A stretch of DNA of 64,000 nucleotides from Xylographa opegraphella. Its lineage: Eukaryota. Positions 1-47,640 of this stretch are shown here, one piece after another; position 1 is the first letter of the stretch; each line of letters starts with the position of its first letter. The notes below the pieces were generated by a model that ran no database searches, was not told the DNA's origin, and worked only from the letters and a program-made list of their open reading frames with translations. The stretch is taken from the NCBI GenBank assembly GCA_022813865.1, contig JALDZX010000076.1:1-64000 (forward strand). The letters are read 5' to 3'. The translations under genes were made by a program, and so were the position numbers.

Positions 1-693
1 TGTTAATATATCGCGATAAAACATGGGTGGTGAAATGCTGGGGGGGTGTGCATTGGCATCGGGCTGTGCATTAACCCGGGAAAACTCCTAAGTTGGATCA
101 CTCTTTAGCGAGGAACTTTGCTCTTGCAATGGAAAATCGTACCACAAAAGGCGGGTATTAAGTGAATAGATGGCGGCCTCCCTGTTGTTTCAGCCAATTG
201 AGGCTATACTCGTATTTTACAGCTGGTATTGATACCGATATGCCAGTGGCACCGCTCTACACTTGCTTTATGAGTAGGATAATGGGCTGTGCTCCGATGC
301 TCGGTCCTTCAACTTTCTCAATTGACAGAGAGCTGGTGCGCATTTGGGATCTTCTTGACACATATGCTACTATGGGGTCGTGAATATTTTGAGGACTTCA
401 AGCCAAACAATGCTAGTGCCGCGTTTTGATTAGTTTGTTTGCTTGTCTATGGCATGCTGCATCAATATGAAATTGGTATTACTTGGATGCCGCGTTTCGT
501 TCCATTGTTTATTCCCTTCACAAACAGGTCCTACAAATACGCTCGAGAAGATTGGGGGAGCAACCCATACATCGAAGACCATTGAGTGTAAACATACATA
601 TGTACAGGTACCTAGATCAAAGAAAAGTGGCTTAGTAATCTTAAATTCCACTGCCACTGTTTTTGGATTGTCTTATCCCTTGCTCGTGAGACA

Positions 694-3600
694 ATGCAAG
701 AATCTTCGGGAAATGAAAGTGAAGGCACCATCGACACCGAAACGATGGGATCACGCTACACGACAACAGTACTGAACAATTATCGAGGTCCAAGGAAGAC
801 TACTGGTAGAAAGAGGAAGATACGTTTGGAGACATCCAGAACACCAAGCTCGAGGAAACGCGCCTAGGCAGATTCCACCGATTCGGAACTTGAGTTCGAT
901 GTCAACGAAGATGAACAAGAGATTGAGGACAATTCTCGTACGGGAAGGAAATTGAGGAACATACAGATCAGATTTCCACAGCTTGTTTTCCCGAAGTCGG
1001 CGTTCATTGGATGGGAGCCACCCTTACCAGTTGAAGCCGAAAGCGCACTTCTAGCAGAACTTTTGGCAAGTTGCTTTCTGCATCAAGTATGATTGTTAAT
1101 GTTCTAACGATGACAGACCAGGAAGGGAATCAGAAGAAATGCCAGCTTTGGTGGCTCGTATTTTACCTCTCTAGATCTTGAACAATTTAGAATCTATCAA
1201 CCACCACCAGAGGATGGCGGTGGCAGATATTCTGATGAGCTTTTTGCGCTCCACGACCCTATTACCACAACATCACGCACTCCTTGTTACTCTGATGGGA
1301 TCATACTTGAGGGCAATGACCGGCACTATGTTCAAAAAGTCGCTTTCACATCTCTTTCCATTGGGGGATATGACGACTTGGACACTCACACTGTCGAGGG
1401 CCAAATATGGATACAAATCCAACTTGGAGCAAAAGTCAATGATGGAGGCATGTGGTACCGATTAAAACCCCCTTCGGATGAGTATGCTCGTTATCACATG
1501 CCGTTTCTTTGGGTAGCGGACCTCGCAAAACATGTGCTCGATTTCTTGAATCATCATATGGAGGTTACCCTTAACATGTTTAAACATACATTCTATGTAT
1601 GGTTAAAGAAGATCCATGGAAATACCGCCTCATTGAACAGCTGGTTATAGGAGTACGGAGACACAGATTTTCGAAGAGCCGTCAATGCACATTCCAAATA
1701 TCTCTTGAGTCAGTCTTTACAACTTGGTGATTCTTATGAATTGCATCCGGTGTGGGGAGAAGTGGGCCCAAATCTGAACCAATTGAATGCTGTGGTGAGA
1801 CAAACAGACAGAGTCCAACTCACCGTTGTCACACCGTTCGTATATCAATGTTTCAAGGATATGGCATTCTCGCGATTCTTGAGTCCACAGAAGCCAACAA
1901 AGCTTGCAGGGGATACCTCTCAATGGCGGAAATCCTGTCAAAGCACTCAGTCGTCGACTCGGATGTTCGAATATTCGCGTGGCTTGACCATCAAGACAGC
2001 GACAACAGGCGCTATTGGCCATGGTGATGTTGTTAAGTTAGTTCGCGATAATTCGAAAGACTCGAAATGGAAAGATGACGAACCTTTCTGGTATGCATAT
2101 GTTCAATAAGTGGAACAAACATCAACCGGCAAAGGACTTCGTGTCTTATGGCTTGACGCTCCTTCACACACGACATGCTCTACAATGCAGTACCCAGTGA
2201 AACAGGAATTGTTTCTTTCGGATCACTGTAACTGTGAGGAACGACATCCCATACCGATCGAAGAGGTTGTTTCAAAGACCTCTGTTTCTTTCTTCTGTGG
2301 TCCTGGCAAGCTTACGACAGAGTTCTTTGTCCGTCAACGATTTTCTCGTCAAGGTTCATATTTCATAGATCTAAGGACTGAGCATTTTGATTGTGGGTGT
2401 GGCAAATCACAAGAGAAGAAAAGATACAATGACGGCGATACTGTACTGGTCATATATCCTACGACTGGTGATGCCATGATTCTAGAACCAGTAGTGTTAA
2501 TGAGCTCAGTGAGCTCTACGAGACCAGGTGCACCGGATACTGTCCGAGTTAGAAGACTGCTGCGGAAGGGGAGAGACTTCCAGGATTGTTATGCTGAACC
2601 TAATGAATTAGTCTATAGTCACACGTTTGAGACCGTATCCACTGATAAGATTGTACGGCCATACCTCGTGGGATTCTACACATTGGAGGACCGAGCCAAT
2701 CGGAAAATTCTAGTACCTTACTGTCGGCAAGGGACAGCAGATGCGTATTACATCATTTTTGAACAGTCCGTCACTGGCGATCTGCGACCAGTGAATGTTT
2801 CATCCCTTGATCCACTGAAACAAGGCTTCGACCCACATGAAAGACTCCCAATGCCGAAGCTAAAAGGATTGAGCTTGTTCTGTGGATCAGGAAATTTCAG
2901 TCGGGACATTGAAGAAGGCGGCGTTGTTGAAGAGCTTTGGGCGGTGGACATCAACGGACATGCTATCCATACTTGTCGAGCCAACCGCGCACAACCCGAC
3001 AAAGTCAAGCTGTACCTCGGTTCTGTAAACGATTATTTGCAGCTGGCAATGCAGGGCTCTGATAACAATCTGATCGCACGTCGTGATGAAGTCGAAGTTA
3101 TCATTGGTGGAAGTCCGTGTCAGGGCTTCTCATTTGTCAATTACCGAAGGAGTAACGAAAGTGCACTGAGGAACATGTCTTTGATTGCATGCTTTGCAGC
3201 CTATGTCGACTATTATAGGCCGAAGTATGCACTGCTAGAAAACATCAGTAGCGTGGCTCAGTGTGCAGAAGAGAATCGAGGAAAGAACGTGCTGTCCCAG
3301 ATGCTGTGCGCTTTTACTGCCATGGGGTATCAAGTTCAACAATTTCACCTAGATGCATGGAGTTACGGAAGTCCCCAAAGTCGCTCACGCCTTATCATAT
3401 CTATTGCGGCTCCGGGTTTGGTGCCTATGTCACCACCTGCACCATCGCATTCGCACCCTCCGGGTATCACAAATCGGAGCTTGGGGAAGGCTGCGAATGG
3501 TTCTCCTTTCAGCGAACGAGTCCTTGACGTAGTAACATCTTTTACGTATATCACAATCGGACAAGCGACTGCTGACCTACCAATTGGCTTTGATGCACGG

Positions 3601-4746
3601 ACTACATCTGTGGGTTTTCCAGACCACCGGCCCTCACGATTTGAAGACAACGACTCTCGAATGCGCATATCGTGCATACCTCGATTTCCAAGCCTTTCAT
3701 CAATCGTAGTGGCTCGGGCCGCGGGACTGGTGCCTCAGCCCTTGATTGATGGACATCCCAGCTTCTGGACCCATAAGTTACGGTCAAATCCTCGTACAAA
3801 GGCGTGGACAAGGGCCAATTCGGATACCCTACTGCCAACAGTTACCTGTAGAGCCCTCCCAGCCGATGGCTTTACAGGTAGAGCCTTGCACTGGGAAGAG
3901 GATAGGTGTTTGACCGTCCTGGAAGTGCGCCGTGCTCAAGGTTTTCCAGACCACGAAGTCATCGTCGGTCTCCCGGCCGCCCAGTTCAGACTTGTGGGCA
4001 ATAGCGTCCCTCGAGCCATGGCACTTGTTTTAGGAATGTCTCTTCCAACCGCGTGGCTAGCTAATGCATCCAATCGATCTGCTAATACTGCTTCTCCACT
4101 TGATGCTTCGAAGAAGATGTTACCACCCAGCGATCCTGAATATCTGATTCATGTTCATGAAGAAAACCACGAAACTGTTTACATTTCCAGCGACGAGGAA
4201 GCGTTAGGTTTGGGAGACATCAGAAGCTCCTCTACACCAAGTCCTGCACTGTTGGAGAGGAAGGTGAATATCGGTGAGTCCCATGCGCGAAAGACATTGG
4301 GCCATAGAAGAAAAGGACGAAATATACGAAGTCTGATTGTCGCTGTGCCTACTTCAAAACCACGCGCTGCGGGATCGTTACCCAGAAAGATGGACATATC
4401 AGACATCGAAAGCATTTCCTCTGATTCTGCAGAAGATGAAGTAGTCCGACGGACATCCTTCTTTCAGCAGTCGTCATTCGCAGGCAACCGCATCGTTCAT
4501 GAGGAACCCATAATCAGAGAGTTCACATCTTACAAGAAGCATTCGAAAGTCACAACTATCGCTAACGACGCAGATATCGCCACGGGCGCATTCATTAATA
4601 CCGCTGCTTCCACGTCCAATCCTGTTCGCGGAACAACCAAACTGAAGAAGATGATAATTACTGATAATACACAAAATCCTTTGCCGCCATCGGCGAAGAT
4701 AAGTCATAGCAGATCGGTCCTCAAGGAAACTATTATCATAGATTAG
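694..4746 (+). pseudogene. dim-2: DIM-2-type C5 cytosine DNA methyltransferase, disrupted by in-frame stops
   Basis: One reading frame from ATG 694, with a probable GC-AG intron at 1066-1116. It carries DIM-2 N-terminal motifs (LSIGGY..HTV..IWIQ, WYRL.P..EY, FLWVADLAKH), BAH-like regions (LFLSDHCNC, EPNELVYS) and C5-MTase motifs (LFCGSGNF, SPCQGFS, LLEN, PQSRSR, RAQGFPD, GNSV). In-frame stops at TAG 865-867, TAG 1648-1650 and TAA 2107-2109. Confidence 0.85.
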
Positions 4747-5559
4747 CCACCTCCGTAGAATATTGCTATTCTATTTTTTGCTCAATCATAACTTTTATCA
4801 AAACCAAATCCTTCTGTCTCGCTCGGAAGCACTCGTATTACATTTCTATATAGATCTTGGTCATGCGATCCTCAATCAGTGACTCAATTTTCCAGTGGAG
4901 AATTTCCTGTTACGCGCGACTTTGGGTCCCTCGCCAGGTAGTAGTCTCCACGATGGGACTGGGGAGCGACTGCAGAATGTGTGAGTTCAGTCAGCTCTTA
5001 CTTTGTAAATAAAATACTATGTTGTTCACTTAGCAAAAACTCAAGACACCCATTCTTCGGGTTATCCACCAGCACCTTGCCGTTCTGGGCCTCGGCTTTC
5101 TCACTAGCGGGTCGGATAACAGTAGCGCGGACGTCATATCCATCACGTCAGCCTTACCGGATGTCACAAGCTAATGGAATCTCGAGCTCTGGCCTCCTGC
5201 ATCCCTGAACCAATCTACGTATACACGAATATCCAGACCCTGCAGCTGACTCCAGACTTAATAGCTTAAGTTCCTGTCAGGCAGCACCTTCGCTTCCTGT
5301 TTCTTTCTGTGATTCTGCTTCCCGTGATCTTTAGTCACAGCAGATTTCATTCAGAAACCCGTGTCTGCACCTCGTCACCACGAGGGCAAACACTGGTTTC
5401 CTGCCTTCTGCCACCACGCCTCCTCAGACTCGAAAGCGGAAAGCTACTGACGACTGCTATACCGCGCCTCACGTTACGAAACAGATCAAGTCGGAGAAAT
5501 TCGCGGACGCGGCTCTTCCAACCACGCCGCTCACAAACGCGAGTACCCCACCAGTCACC

Positions 5560-42238: not shown

Positions 42239-45109
42239 CTAGATATTAACGCCAGCTCTCCGGCCTTCTGTTTGCGCCTTGGTGAAATTGGCCATGAGGC
42301 CTAAAATTCCGGGATTATTGTCATTCAAAGATGATGGAATCTCTCCATCAACATTGTCGTCCTCGTCCATAATACCTGCTCGTGTCGTCGTCCAAGATTC
42401 GCCTGTTGTACTGTCGTAAGATTTGCCTGCGTTCGCGCTTACCCGTGACTGGACGTCTGGAGTTTCAGTATGTGCCAATTCACCATCTTCAACGACTTCA
42501 GCAGGGGGTTTCAGAGACGCTTGAAGTCGCGATGGGACTCCCAGCTTATGCTTTGTTTTCGACATTGCTGGCAGAGGTTGATGCTGCGGATCCAACAATA
42601 CAGAGGTCATCGGGGAAGCCAGGCCGCCCAACGGAGCGAAGCGTGGTGTACGCTGGGATACATGAAGGATACCAGGAGGAGCCTGCCGGCCTGAAGATTT
42701 TGGCTGACGATCAGCTCCAATGTTCCTGATTATCCCAGACGTGTGGGCTTGCCCAACGAATGTGGGTGAAGTAAGCCCTGGAAAACTGGGCGGAGGGTGG
42801 AATTGCGGCCGATTCGATTTTGTCTGGTGAAGGTAAGGCGCACCTTGCTTGGGGTTTGTCGCATAATTGTCTAGAAAATTGTAGTAAGACGCCAGCATTT
42901 TGCCGTCTTTCGTAGCAAAGTAGTCTCCACGAAGGTCAGAGGCCTCGTCAGGTCTCGATTGACGTGACTGAGGCGCGTTGCTTCCCCCCTTCTTGAAGTC
43001 GAAGACCGCAAAAGAGCAGACGTGGCCTAGACCATCCACGTGAACAGTAAATTCCCTGAAAAAATCGACAATTCGTTCGCTACACTTTGGTAGACTATAC
43101 CAAAGAACGAACGGTGTGAAGATAATGCTTAGAATTTCCTCAAGAAATATTACAACTTTCATCTGGTAAAGGACTGCGAACTCCTTCCGAACGTCGTCAC
43201 TATGTAATCGGCCCTTCCAGTGGTATGGTTGGTAATGAGTATAGTCTATGACATTGTTAAGCGCGTACTCCGGATCGAATACTAGATTTTCCTCCGGAAC
43301 GACCCCCCTTGCTACAGCCCATATACTGCCAAAGACGCCAAGATAAAAGAGCACTGTTCTTTCTGGTGTGATCTCGAAGCCAAGGAAGATGTCAGGATCG
43401 ATGACTGAGGCTAGTGCTAGAACAGAAGCAAGGGCACCAGTTATGAAGGCAATGAAACGAGAAATTTGGATAGTTTTGTCTTTTGGAAACTGATCAATGT
43501 AACGAGAGGCAAATGGGTATGACATGTTGATTCGCCGCTCAAAAAGATGCCATAGCTCATTGAACTCGCGGAATTTCCATTCCGCAAATGGCGTAAATTG
43601 ACGCGAGGAGAGTTGCGATGGATTGCGTTGATACTCGTTGAAGTACCGGAAAAAATAAAGCATCATGAAATAGGTAATAATGAATGGAGCACAGATGACA
43701 TTCATGACACCAGCGAACATAAATCTATTGCGCAATCCATCACAAAGGGCCTTCCGACGCGAGTCCTTAAGGAAGAGAGGTCTGACTTGACCCTGATCGT
43801 TGAACACGTAGTCAAGAATACACAAACTTAGATTCCACTCAAGGGTTTTCGAGAAAAGAGGTCTGCTGTTCAAGAATGGTATTGGCAAAGTCAGATCCAG
43901 GATGTCCTTGTTGAATAAAGCGATGAGATAATTATCACGCCGCATCAGTCGATTTGCGATATCGTGCGCATCCATACGTTGCTTCGATTGAGTGCCAATG
44001 AATCGACGATGTTTTTCCGATATTCCGCCCGCGGTAGTCGGATTCGCGTCTCTCAATGCCATCAGTCGCTGGACAACATCCTGCCACGCAATAGTTTGGA
44101 TATCAGTATCTGGGATTTCCAAGAGATAGTGATAGAAGTCGTGCATGTACAGTAATTTCCGAATCTCGAGAATATACTGAAATACTTTAATGACCCATAG
44201 AAAAACGAAGAGCCAGATTAAGAGGTTTGCGAGCCCGGACATATTCTTGGTACACTGCGGTATAAGGATCTCGGACATCTCTTTGCTTCCGGGAACCTTC
44301 TTGTAGTCGACGCAGGATGTTAAAAATGTGCCAAATGCAACAACAAAGGCTAAAGTCCTAACAAATTGGGTCAATATAAAGCGAAACGCAGTGAAGCTCT
44401 GCCATACTTACAGAAGGTTCAAGGCCCTACTCAAGAGTATAGACCATATCCCATTACCAAGAAAGTAGTCATATACATCCTTTAAGAAATTGTCCAGATT
44501 CTCCACGTTTGTCCACCTCCAAAGAGCCTTTTCTTTGCGATCTATTATGTGTATTCTTTTCCCTTGGCTGTTCCGATTATCGTAAGCTTGGGTGGCTTTC
44601 GGAACTTGGTGGAGCTTCTGCTGCTCCTGGGAGATTTGCCACTTTGCCCTTGTGGCTCTTGTCACTGGTCCCGGGATTGGGACGGAGTTTGTGTCCTGAG
44701 GCGAGGCATCGGATAAGGGTCGTATCGGGGAAAGTGGTGCGTCGCTGCGGCCGCCTTCAATCAGTAAAGATAGTGGAACGTCGTCATCGCCGTCGTCAAT
44801 TTCAGCATTGTTGTGTGGCTTTCGCATCCATCGAGGTGCTCGTGCTGCCCCTTTTTCATGTCTGTCAATTGCCGTATTTCTAGTAGGGGAGGCGTTCAAT
44901 TCCAGCTGGCTATCCATGGCATCAGCAAGAGCGGGGTCAAGTTGAAAATCGTGGTTAGCTAGGTTCTCTTCGTCCACTGATGCCATGCCAGCCCTCTCCT
45001 CTATGTCACCGGCATCAGATGAGTCGTCATGTTCCCGTAATTCTTCGTAGATCGATGGTGATCCAGCCGTCTGGGGCAGTAGTCGGGAGAACATGTTAGA
45101 TGCCATCAT
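42239..45109 (-). CDS. ATG9: Autophagy-related protein 9
   Basis: Motifs [48 protein letters not shown] and [13 protein letters not shown]. One intron. Confidence 0.97.
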
Positions 45110-45493: not shown

Positions 45494-47640
45494 ATGACTG
45501 CTCTTGACTATGATGCAAATGGGCTAAGTTCGGAATATGAACTGGAACCCGCAATTCTAACACTACCGCAGAGGTCGAACGCTATTTCGACCAAACTGAG
45601 TAGTATTTTGTCCGCGTCGTTCGTCGACGCAGAGATTCGCGAGGCATTACATACCCTAGATGAAAGAGAAACACGCAATACGCCCGAGACTAGAAGAAAT
45701 CTTCGGTTAAATGCTCAAAAAGAAGTCATTGAACACAATGGAGACATCATCAGGGATTTTGGTCACGTTGCGGAGGTTCGTCCTCTAAGCAACCTACCCT
45801 GAATGGGGGCCGTTCGTTACTGAGACACCGCCAGCAATTGAAACGTATTGGCTCAACTATTGAAAGCCTTAATCGCTGCTGTGAGGATCTACGTGAACAT
45901 GTGGCCATCGCACACCGTGAGACGGGTTCGGTGCTTGAGGAAGCAAATTCGCTTTTCATCCGCAAGCAAGAAAGTGAAACTAAGAAACAACTGCTGGATG
46001 CTTTCGTTGAACACTTTGTCATTTCGGAAGACGATTTGGAAACTCTCACTTCACCTAATACACCAGTGGACGACCGATTCTTTGCCAATTTGTCACGCCT
46101 GAAAAAGGTCCATAAAGACTGCCAAGTGCTTCTTGGATCAGAGAATCAACAACTGGGACTTGATCTGATGGACAAGAGCTCTAGAGACCTCAATACGGCA
46201 TTTCAGAAGCTATATCGGTGGATTCAGAAGGAATTTCGCAATCTTAATCTCGAAACCCCTCAAATGAACACTTCAATACGCAGGTCACTTCGAGTGCTCG
46301 CAGAACGCCCAACAATATTCCAAAGTTGTCTCGACTTCTTTGCAGAATCCCGAGAGCGGAACCTCTCCGACTCTTTCTATGCGGCTTTGACTGGGACGCC
46401 GACGAACAATGGGGCCGAGGATCTCACAACTAAGCCTATCGAATATAACGCACACGAGCCACTTCGATTTGTGGGAGATCTACTTGCATGGACGCATTCT
46501 GCAACTGTGTCAGAGCGAGAATCTCTGGAAGTTCTCTTCATTTCCGAAGGCGACGAGATAGCAAAGGGTATTCGGGCCGGTATAGAAAGCGAGCCTTGGT
46601 CGCAAGAGAGTGTCGAGGCTTTTGATGGCCGGAAATCACTAGAACAGCTCGTCAATCGAGATTTGGCTGGAGTAGCCAGGGCACTGCGACAACGTATTGA
46701 GCAAGTCATTCAAAGCGATGAGGACCCGGTACTAGCTTACCAAATTGCAAACCTGATCGACTTCTACCGTGTCACCTTTGACCGTCTCCTGGGTGCAAAG
46801 TCCAGTGTTCTACTTACACTGTCAACACTGCAACAGTCTGCGCTTCGGCAATATCGTACAACTATGCAGGAATACATCAATACTGTTACGGCTCATGTAC
46901 CTAGGATTTCGCCTGATCTCGATATCCCAGAATTCCTGGCCGAAGCATTAGATAGACTGAAAGCTCTGATGAAAAGCTACGATTCATCATTAGCCCCAGC
47001 AGAGTCACGAGGCACAGGTTTCGTGCCAATCTTGCTCGAGGCTTTGGATCCATATCTCGACCTTTGTGAAAAAATGGCAAGTAAGGCCCAAGAGCCTTCT
47101 CAGACAATTTTTACCGTGAACTGCTTTCTAGCAGCAAAATCGTGTTTATCCGAATTTGATTTTAATGTCGAACGAGTCATTGATATCGAGGAAATAATTG
47201 ATGCCCGCATGTCTAAACTCGTCGAATATCAGCATGCTTTCTTCCTCCACATGTCTGGCGTACATCCTTTACTTGCAGCGCTGACTCCCCTCACGGAGAA
47301 TGATGCAGACTTGAAGCGCATCTCAGATCTTGAGCCGTTCCAAGAACAAGCCTTGATTGACGCAAGTCAGATTTTGGATGATTTTCTGCCATCCGCACTC
47401 ATTGATGCAATGGAGAACCTAAGGCTGCTAAAGAACACAAGAATGGCGGAGGACGTCACTGCTGAAGCTGTCAATTTGTTTGGTGAGGACTTTCAATTCG
47501 TGGAGCGAAAGCTCACGGATGCTGATGCACTATATGAGAGAGGTGATGAAAGGATAGATGATGCTTCAGAAATCCTGGGACCTTCACTACGAACACTCTT
47601 TCCAAGAACGAGTGAAGAGATCAGAGTTCTGCTTAGCTAG
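45494..47640 (+). CDS. COG6: Conserved oligomeric Golgi complex subunit 6
   Basis: Motifs [25 protein letters not shown] and KPIE..AH.PLR.VGD.LAW.HSA. One intron at about 45776-45834. Confidence 0.95.

Follow-up and report, generated by a model that had tools for sequence, protein, structure and literature searches.

Stop codons and conservation-blind substitutions point to a probable recent unitary pseudogene of the DNA methyltransferase gene dim-2 in Xylographa opegraphella

DIM-2 writes most of the heterochromatic 5-methylcytosine (5mC) in filamentous ascomycetes, and fungi have often lost DNA methyltransferases. Here we describe the dim-2 locus of the lichen-forming fungus Xylographa opegraphella, found in the first 64,000 nucleotides of contig JALDZX010000076.1 (NCBI GenBank assembly GCA_022813865.1, forward strand; hereafter the window, from whose first letter all coordinates are counted), which is probably a recent unitary pseudogene produced by ordinary point mutation. 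The Neurospora crassa enzyme, for which the structures 9bap, 9baq and 9baz are described, is reported to need the protein HP1 and histone H3 trimethylated at lysine 9 (H3K9me3), and its W261A/W581A double mutant to be largely inactive (PMC11315935). A natural loss is on record in Zymoseptoria tritici, whose dim2 gene is described as having multiplied, to 23 copies in the reference isolate, and as heavily mutated by the C:G>T:A changes of repeat-induced point mutation (RIP), with altered mutation rates in repeats as a reported consequence (PMC8016269). Premature stops of another kind occur in the premature stop codon (PSC) pseudogenes of Fusarium graminearum, including FgRID1 of the DNA methyltransferase family, which combine in-frame TAG codons with an otherwise unbroken frame (PMC10776026, PMC11156358).

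The window locus resembles each of these systems in part. It shares with N. crassa DIM-2, as described in PMC11315935, the order N-terminal tail, RFTS, BAH1, BAH2 and C5-methyltransferase, together with the SPC, the ENV-type motif VI, QSRSR, GNSVP and both tryptophans of the H3K9me3 cage, but unlike that protein it has stops in the tail, RFTS and BAH1 as well as private changes at sites common to N. crassa and 114 lichen-fungal proteins. Like the Z. tritici loss as reported in PMC8016269, it would be a recent natural inactivation by premature stops with intact close relatives; in contrast to the amplified and RIP-riddled gene of that species, there is one copy in 64 kb, the RIP indices are negative and the spectrum is mixed, transversions making up 23 of 62 assigned changes, so that RIP inactivation of the Z. 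tritici type does not describe it. The in-frame TAGs, the unbroken frame and the enzyme family recall the F. graminearum PSC pseudogenes as those reports present them, whereas the third stop is an uneditable TAA, constraint on the gene is relaxed, with substitutions falling blind to conservation, and editing is not known in its fungal class. On these grounds an editing-restored PSC pseudogene is disfavoured.

The gene is DIM-2 by descent, although its full-length frame is interrupted. Of 6183 candidates searched with the read-through protein, 596 matched at E <= 0.001, headed by proteins annotated as DNA methyltransferase Dim-2 from X. soralifera (P0001, 75% identity), X. bjoerkii (P0003, 66%) and X. 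trunciseda (P0004, 68%) and followed by many lichen-fungal proteins at 40-60%. Two stretches align with the solved N. crassa DIM2 (E 1.1e-171), one spanning the RFTS and the other BAH1, BAH2 and the methyltransferase. Among Pfam profiles, PF00145 (DNA_methylase; cut-off 22 bits) is found in 2110-4743 at E 3.9e-30, and matches to PF25423 (DUF7893) flank the second stop, split at profile positions 49/51; the BAH profile failed to pass the E 0.01 threshold on the pieces of the window protein and is recorded for the orthologs P0001 and P0003. The strings FCGSGNF, GGSPCQ, LLENI (V>I), SPQSRSR and GNSVPR are all readable in the window protein, and we take them to be the C5-methyltransferase motifs I, IV (PC), VI, VIII and X. 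Equivalents of both cage tryptophans of N. crassa are also kept, namely W261 (in GQIW) and W581 (TGG at 2089-2091), the latter located by counting along the N. crassa alignment against the residue numbers given in PMC11315935. A first-pass annotation, made by a model from the letters of the window, had stated that the catalytic Pro-Cys is retained, which is the case (Table 1), and had listed several conserved residues as drifted, which is true of some of them: the C of AIHTC and the P and T of SLPTAW are private to the window, as is the D of SRDIEE, whereas for the genus there is nothing unusual in the motif I serines (LSLFCGSGNFS), the orthologs reading L[SGA]LFCGSGNF[SHG]RG.

Three premature stops, two TAG and one TAA, interrupt this gene in a single frame (Table 1). 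When the intact X. soralifera protein P0001 was compared with the window by tblastn it gave one high-scoring segment pair (query 5-1324 on 688-4743, 73% identity, frame +1), which implies that there is no frameshift and that the 64-kb window holds one dim-2 copy. This agrees with the first-pass annotation, which had described one frame running through TAG 865, TAG 1648 and TAA 2107 without a visible frameshift; the DIM-2-like sequence that it had seen around the two downstream stops extends to both sides of all three. From 2110 to 4746 the frame is free of stops across 878 codons. The list of three stops holds for the coding sequence, and three further in-frame stops that it omitted (TGA 1090, TAA 1105 and TGA 1111) fall within 1066-1116, a segment which by its sequence is probably a GC-AG intron. 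More specifically, the X. soralifera model P0001 is spliced precisely at the equivalent of this segment, between AELL and MKQ, and the models P0003, P0004 and P0121 open it with Ala-Ser, consistent with a conserved GCAAGT. Two other solutions were dropped: a 30-nucleotide (nt) intron from GTATGA at 1087 to the AG at 1116, as 30 nt is too short for a fungal intron, and donors at 1070, as the resulting 47-nt intron disrupts the frame. The Ala-Ser reading of the segment, with its probable GC donor, is common to models of three other Xylographa species, which treat the segment in three different ways.

In the intact full-length orthologs of X. soralifera, X. bjoerkii and X. trunciseda every stop site holds a sense residue, and in two models of the X. 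parallela group, P0121 and P0006, the first and third sites do so wherever they are covered. At the position of stop 1, in the poorly conserved tail, relatives have A, S, P or S. The position of stop 2 is occupied by Gln in P0001, P0003 and P0004, by Arg in P0005 and by Glu and Asp in P0007 and P0012, and CAG>TAG is the sole single-step route to the stop. At the position of stop 3, P0001, P0006 and P0121 have Lys while P0003, P0004, P0005, P0007 and P0012 have Arg; a TAA derived from Lys requires an A>T transversion. Stretches compared at 80% likeness with contigs of two other organisms from the same study yielded a 170-nt piece with 18 differences (2085-2254) and another of 40 nt from one organism and none from the other, with 2107 too close to the contig end for listing. 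Local RNA folds of 41 nt at the stops leave the middle A unpaired at 865 and 2107 but pair it at 1648, a pattern that, for want of a background distribution, is not diagnostic.

The stops are present in the reads as well as in the assembly. One public run contains all sampled words of 600-4800, and an independently built read-derived contig is identical to the window across this interval, with 0 differences over 4201 bases at a word depth of 160. The read check that had been proposed for the three stops thus comes out in their favour, as this contig carries all of them. Its sample is probably that of the assembly, and a read contig from the same sample excludes an assembly slip but not polymorphism among specimens. 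Long clean frames elsewhere in the window, encoding Ariadne-type RBR, Inp1, DnaJ, oxysterol-binding, CP2, WD40, AAA ATPase, ATG9, COG6 and eIF2B-epsilon proteins, show that there is no general assembly problem.

COG6 (window 45733-47637), a neighbour of dim-2, served as marker and control gene. It has a 100% identical annotated protein (P0128) and separate orthologs in X. pallens and X. parallela (both 87%), X. vitiligo (85%), X. soralifera (84%), X. bjoerkii (83%) and X. trunciseda (80%). The DIM-2 tree, in which each of the five inner branches is supported, reads (P0003, (P0004, (P0001, (window, P0006)))), and the COG6 tree has the same topology: (bjoerkii, trunciseda, (soralifera, (window, parallela-like))). 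The matching trees, combined with the separate COG6 proteins, indicate that the intact dim-2 genes are orthologs in other species. Among the best 120 of the 596 DIM-2 matches (664-2116 amino acids), none besides the window's own product exceeds 75% identity and none is named X. opegraphella, which argues against an annotated intact paralog without replacing a whole-genome search for an unannotated one. Even in COG6 the window lineage is faster than its congeners, as evidenced by Tajima counts of 55:31, 56:28 and 49:24 and a terminal branch of 0.11 against 0.023-0.088.

The pattern of amino acid replacement was assessed in an alignment of the read-through protein with 119 of its best 120 matches, P0002 being left out as the window's own product, and the 114 rows outside the Xylographa group served as conservation background. 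At the 166 columns that are at least 95% conserved in this background the window deviates 14 times, compared with 8, 9, 8, 2 and 8 times in five relatives (the last of 137 covered columns). Half of the window's deviations (7 of 14) are private (Table 1), and at 6 of these 7 sites N. crassa DIM2 also has the consensus residue, R1101P lying beyond the compared part of that alignment. A site-class test on the columns usable in the window, P0001, P0003, P0004 and P0005, of which 243/875 are at least 90% conserved, placed 14/41 window-private changes on conserved columns against 17/122 in the pooled relatives (Fisher p 0.01), and the share of the window is about that expected for changes scattered at random (243/875). 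With P0006 added, which restricts the comparison to the C-terminal two thirds, the counts are 11/28 and 16/87 (p 0.04). The same test on COG6, with 239/579 conserved columns and a background from which three close rows were left out, gave 5/33 against 14/68 (p 0.6). These results support the conclusion that the private substitutions of the window dim-2 are blind to site conservation, unlike those of COG6.

Several observations weigh against decay or temper the case for it. The Tajima count for DIM-2 (147:55 against P0001, with P0003 as outgroup) is not significantly different from that for COG6 (55:31; heterogeneity p 0.16), and dividing the terminal branch of DIM-2 by that of COG6 gives 2.3 in the window, 1.4 in X. 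soralifera, 2.6 in X. bjoerkii and 2.8 in X. trunciseda. The DIM-2 rate is thus not exceptional given the faster lineage, and its acceleration is partly a property of that lineage; overall acceleration was accordingly dropped as proof of decay, for which the case rests on the site-class test. The intact P0001 also has a high share of its changes at conserved sites, albeit on few changes (4/14 and 5/20). There is no frameshift, the last 878 codons are open, and the chance that all three stops fall within the first 455 codons, given the distribution of nonsense-prone codons, is about 0.06. Regarding the absence of a frameshift, 515 of 11,997 possible single changes yield a stop, from which two to three nonsense hits imply a neutral divergence of about 1.2-1.7%, or 47-70 substitutions; a divergence of about 1-2% is compatible with no frameshift having occurred yet.

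The private changes in dim-2 are due to ordinary mutation biased from GC to AT and not to RIP. The RIP indices of the dim-2 locus are negative, like those of the rest of the window (TpA/ApT 0.60; (CpA+TpG)/(ApC+GpT) 1.25). Of the 80 window-private sites, 62 could be assigned to one single-step change; a further 6 require at least two changes, and the other 12 are ambiguous. The assigned changes comprise 39 transitions and 23 transversions, and C>T and G>A together number 29 as opposed to 10 in the reverse direction, just 7 of the 29 standing in a CpA/TpG context; such a spectrum is what mutation without selection should leave. RIP was rejected as the cause on the dinucleotide indices and this mixed spectrum, which, along with the A>T route from Lys to TAA, bears out an earlier suggestion of neutral decay rather than pure RIP. 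The G+C content of the locus is 47.2%, compared with 52.0% for the whole window, which fits a GC>AT bias; flanking 4-kb bins are also at 47-49%.

The stops, the orthology and the sense codons that orthologs have in place of the stops are established, as are the conservation-blind substitutions and the absence of a RIP signature, and we posit that dim-2 of X. opegraphella is probably a recent unitary pseudogene that decayed by point mutation. Nonsense mutations at codons 58, 302 and 455 would stop translation ahead of the BAH and methyltransferase domains, and with three of them no full-length DIM-2 is possible. Constraint would then have been lifted, with substitutions falling across the whole gene, catalytic domain included, regardless of conservation, and the neutral divergence reached so far would still be too low for any frameshift, or any stop within the last 878 codons, to be expected. 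Protein function, and with it the 5mC directed by HP1 and H3K9me3 in this species, would presumably be lost. The first-pass annotation had proposed inactivation by nonsense mutations and called it recent; the ortholog sense codons, the read-derived contig and the conservation-blind changes, unlike those of the control gene, support the former, and the estimated divergence fits the latter.

An alternative that takes the clustering of the stops at face value is that the shortened enzyme still works, an 853-amino-acid product begun at the internal ATG at 2185 methylating DNA without the N-terminal targeting domains. Such a product would have all three stops upstream of it, at the chance of about 0.06 given above, and would draw on 878 open codons with recognisable catalytic motifs and the Pro-Cys kept; the public annotation also records it as P0002. 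It would, however, start inside BAH1 and lose the HP1-binding N-terminal segment, the entire RFTS and both cage tryptophans, and in N. crassa the activity of DIM2 is reported to depend on HP1 and H3K9me3 (PMC11315935). The region encoding it is itself conservation-blind (11/28 against 16/87), with G721D beside motif I, Y744C, ENV>ENI and R1101P among its changes. We consider a working short enzyme unlikely, and the public 853-amino-acid methyltransferase annotation at this locus is probably the remnant of a dead gene. It is also conceivable that the window gene is a decaying extra copy while an intact dim-2 elsewhere in the genome does the work, as the copy search covered the 64-kb window; however, the gene is placed where the species tree predicts the ortholog, the contig proteins P0002 and P0128 are in the searched collection, yet no closer or same-species DIM-2 is among the best 120 matches, and the RIP signature expected of a duplicated gene in a RIP-competent fungus is missing, all of which makes an extra copy very unlikely.

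The remaining explanations leave the protein, or the gene itself, intact. A-to-I editing of UAG to UGG in the sexual stage could restore full-length DIM-2 only in fruiting bodies, for which the 71 PSC pseudogenes of F. graminearum including FgRID1, with TAG stops reported often to derive from non-TGG codons (PMC10776026), offer a precedent, and two of the three stops here are TAG in a frame that is otherwise unbroken. The third stop, though, is TAA, and editing of UAA to UGA still leaves a stop, TAA alleles having been used as uneditable controls in that system (PMC11156358, PMC10776026). Editing is described in PMC11156358 as not found genome-wide in Aspergillus nidulans and Botrytis cinerea and is not known in Lecanoromycetes; the conservation-blind substitutions further speak against continued selection on the protein, and rescue by editing is thus highly improbable. 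Least probable of all is that the stops stem from a sequencing or assembly error, or from rare variants within a mixed sample. One assembly and one run contain the stretch, which would allow for this, but the independent read contig shows 0 differences at depth 160, the three substitutions are of differing kinds and the neighbouring genes are clean.

Unitary loss of dim-2 may not be confined to X. opegraphella. Of 843 candidates searched with the N-terminal part, 7 proteins matched at E <= 1e-10, the best of them a 556-amino-acid 'Dim-2' of X. parallela (P0121). This model has an internal Met start, omits the 42 residues immediately surrounding the position of stop 2 and breaks off at RKGRDF, short of the methyltransferase domain. 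The model P0006 (931 amino acids), which starts at a downstream internal Met and differs from P0121 at 5 positions in their overlap as read from the alignment, is accelerated relative to P0001 (81:48). No full-length DIM-2 named X. pallens or X. vitiligo is present among the best 120 full-length matches or all 7 N-terminal matches, though COG6 of both species was found; C-terminal fragments below 664 amino acids were not searched. Judged from these gene models, the fragmentary sister proteins may be signs, not proof, of decay, whether shared or parallel, beyond X. opegraphella. Where the first-pass annotation had left it open whether the loss belonged to a lineage or a strain, they argue for a lineage. 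We can only tentatively suggest, as a doubtful but possible extension, that dim-2 decayed across a Xylographa subclade comprising the window species and the X. parallela group, perhaps with X. pallens and X. vitiligo, and that the first lesion lay in the RFTS near stop 2. If true, this would be a natural, RIP-independent, clade-level loss of a heterochromatin methyltransferase in lichen-forming fungi, with the intact genes of X. soralifera, X. bjoerkii and X. trunciseda to compare it with.

For X. opegraphella itself, the loss, if true, would be a second natural loss of dim-2, reached through simple point mutation in a slow-growing fungal symbiont whose congeners have kept the gene intact. It would provide a comparative system for shifts that follow such a loss, in transposon content, CA>TA mutation load and residual 5mC. 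No paper was found that reports a loss of DIM-2 in Xylographa or any other lichen fungus, a weak negative as no search pairing lichen and methyltransferase terms was made.

Table 1. Coordinates of the dim-2 locus and its parts in the window
Feature	Position	Strand	Remarks
dim-2 locus	694-4746	+	frame 1, ATG 694 to normal stop TAG 4744-4746, ~1333 codons
Exon 1 of dim-2, 124 codons	694..1065	+	poorly conserved N-terminal tail; N-termini of P0001, P0003, P0004 (MQE...) align
Premature stop 1, TAG, codon 58	865..867	+	N-terminal tail
Probable intron, GC-AG, 51 nt, in-frame	1066..1116	+	GCAAGT start, CTAAC 1104-1108, AG 1115-1116
Exon 2 of dim-2	1117..4746	+	single frame; C-terminus ETIIID agrees with orthologs; 73% identity to P0001
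RFTS-like domain	1276..1881	+	N. crassa DIM2 chain residues 220-432; Pfam DUF7893 at 1501-1767
Premature stop 2, TAG, codon 302	1648..1650	+	within RFTS/DUF7893 domain
BAH1-BAH2-methyltransferase region	1954..4095	+	N. crassa DIM2 chain residues 533-1251, domain i-Evalue 4.5e-140
Premature stop 3, TAA, codon 455	2107..2109	+	within BAH1, six codons past W581 equivalent
Open frame of annotated product P0002, 853 amino acids, start MQYPV	2185..4746	+	P0002 100% identical; 2185-4743 = 853 codons
Private replacements at sites at least 95% conserved, BAH2 and methyltransferase regions	2662..4047	+	C640Y (2662), R643G (2671), P656L (2710), G721D (2905), Y744C (2974), V834I (3244, ENV>ENI), R1101P (4045)
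Catalytic Pro-Cys, motif IV (GGSPCQGFS)	3115..3120	+	kept; aligns with N. crassa S924-P925-C926

Outside the dim-2 locus, a TAA at 44408 was considered as the mark of a second stop-bearing gene, ATG9, and rejected, as it lies in an ordinary intron of 54 nt on the minus strand (GTAAGT...TAG, 44358-44411) whose length is a multiple of three. The window includes 86 N.

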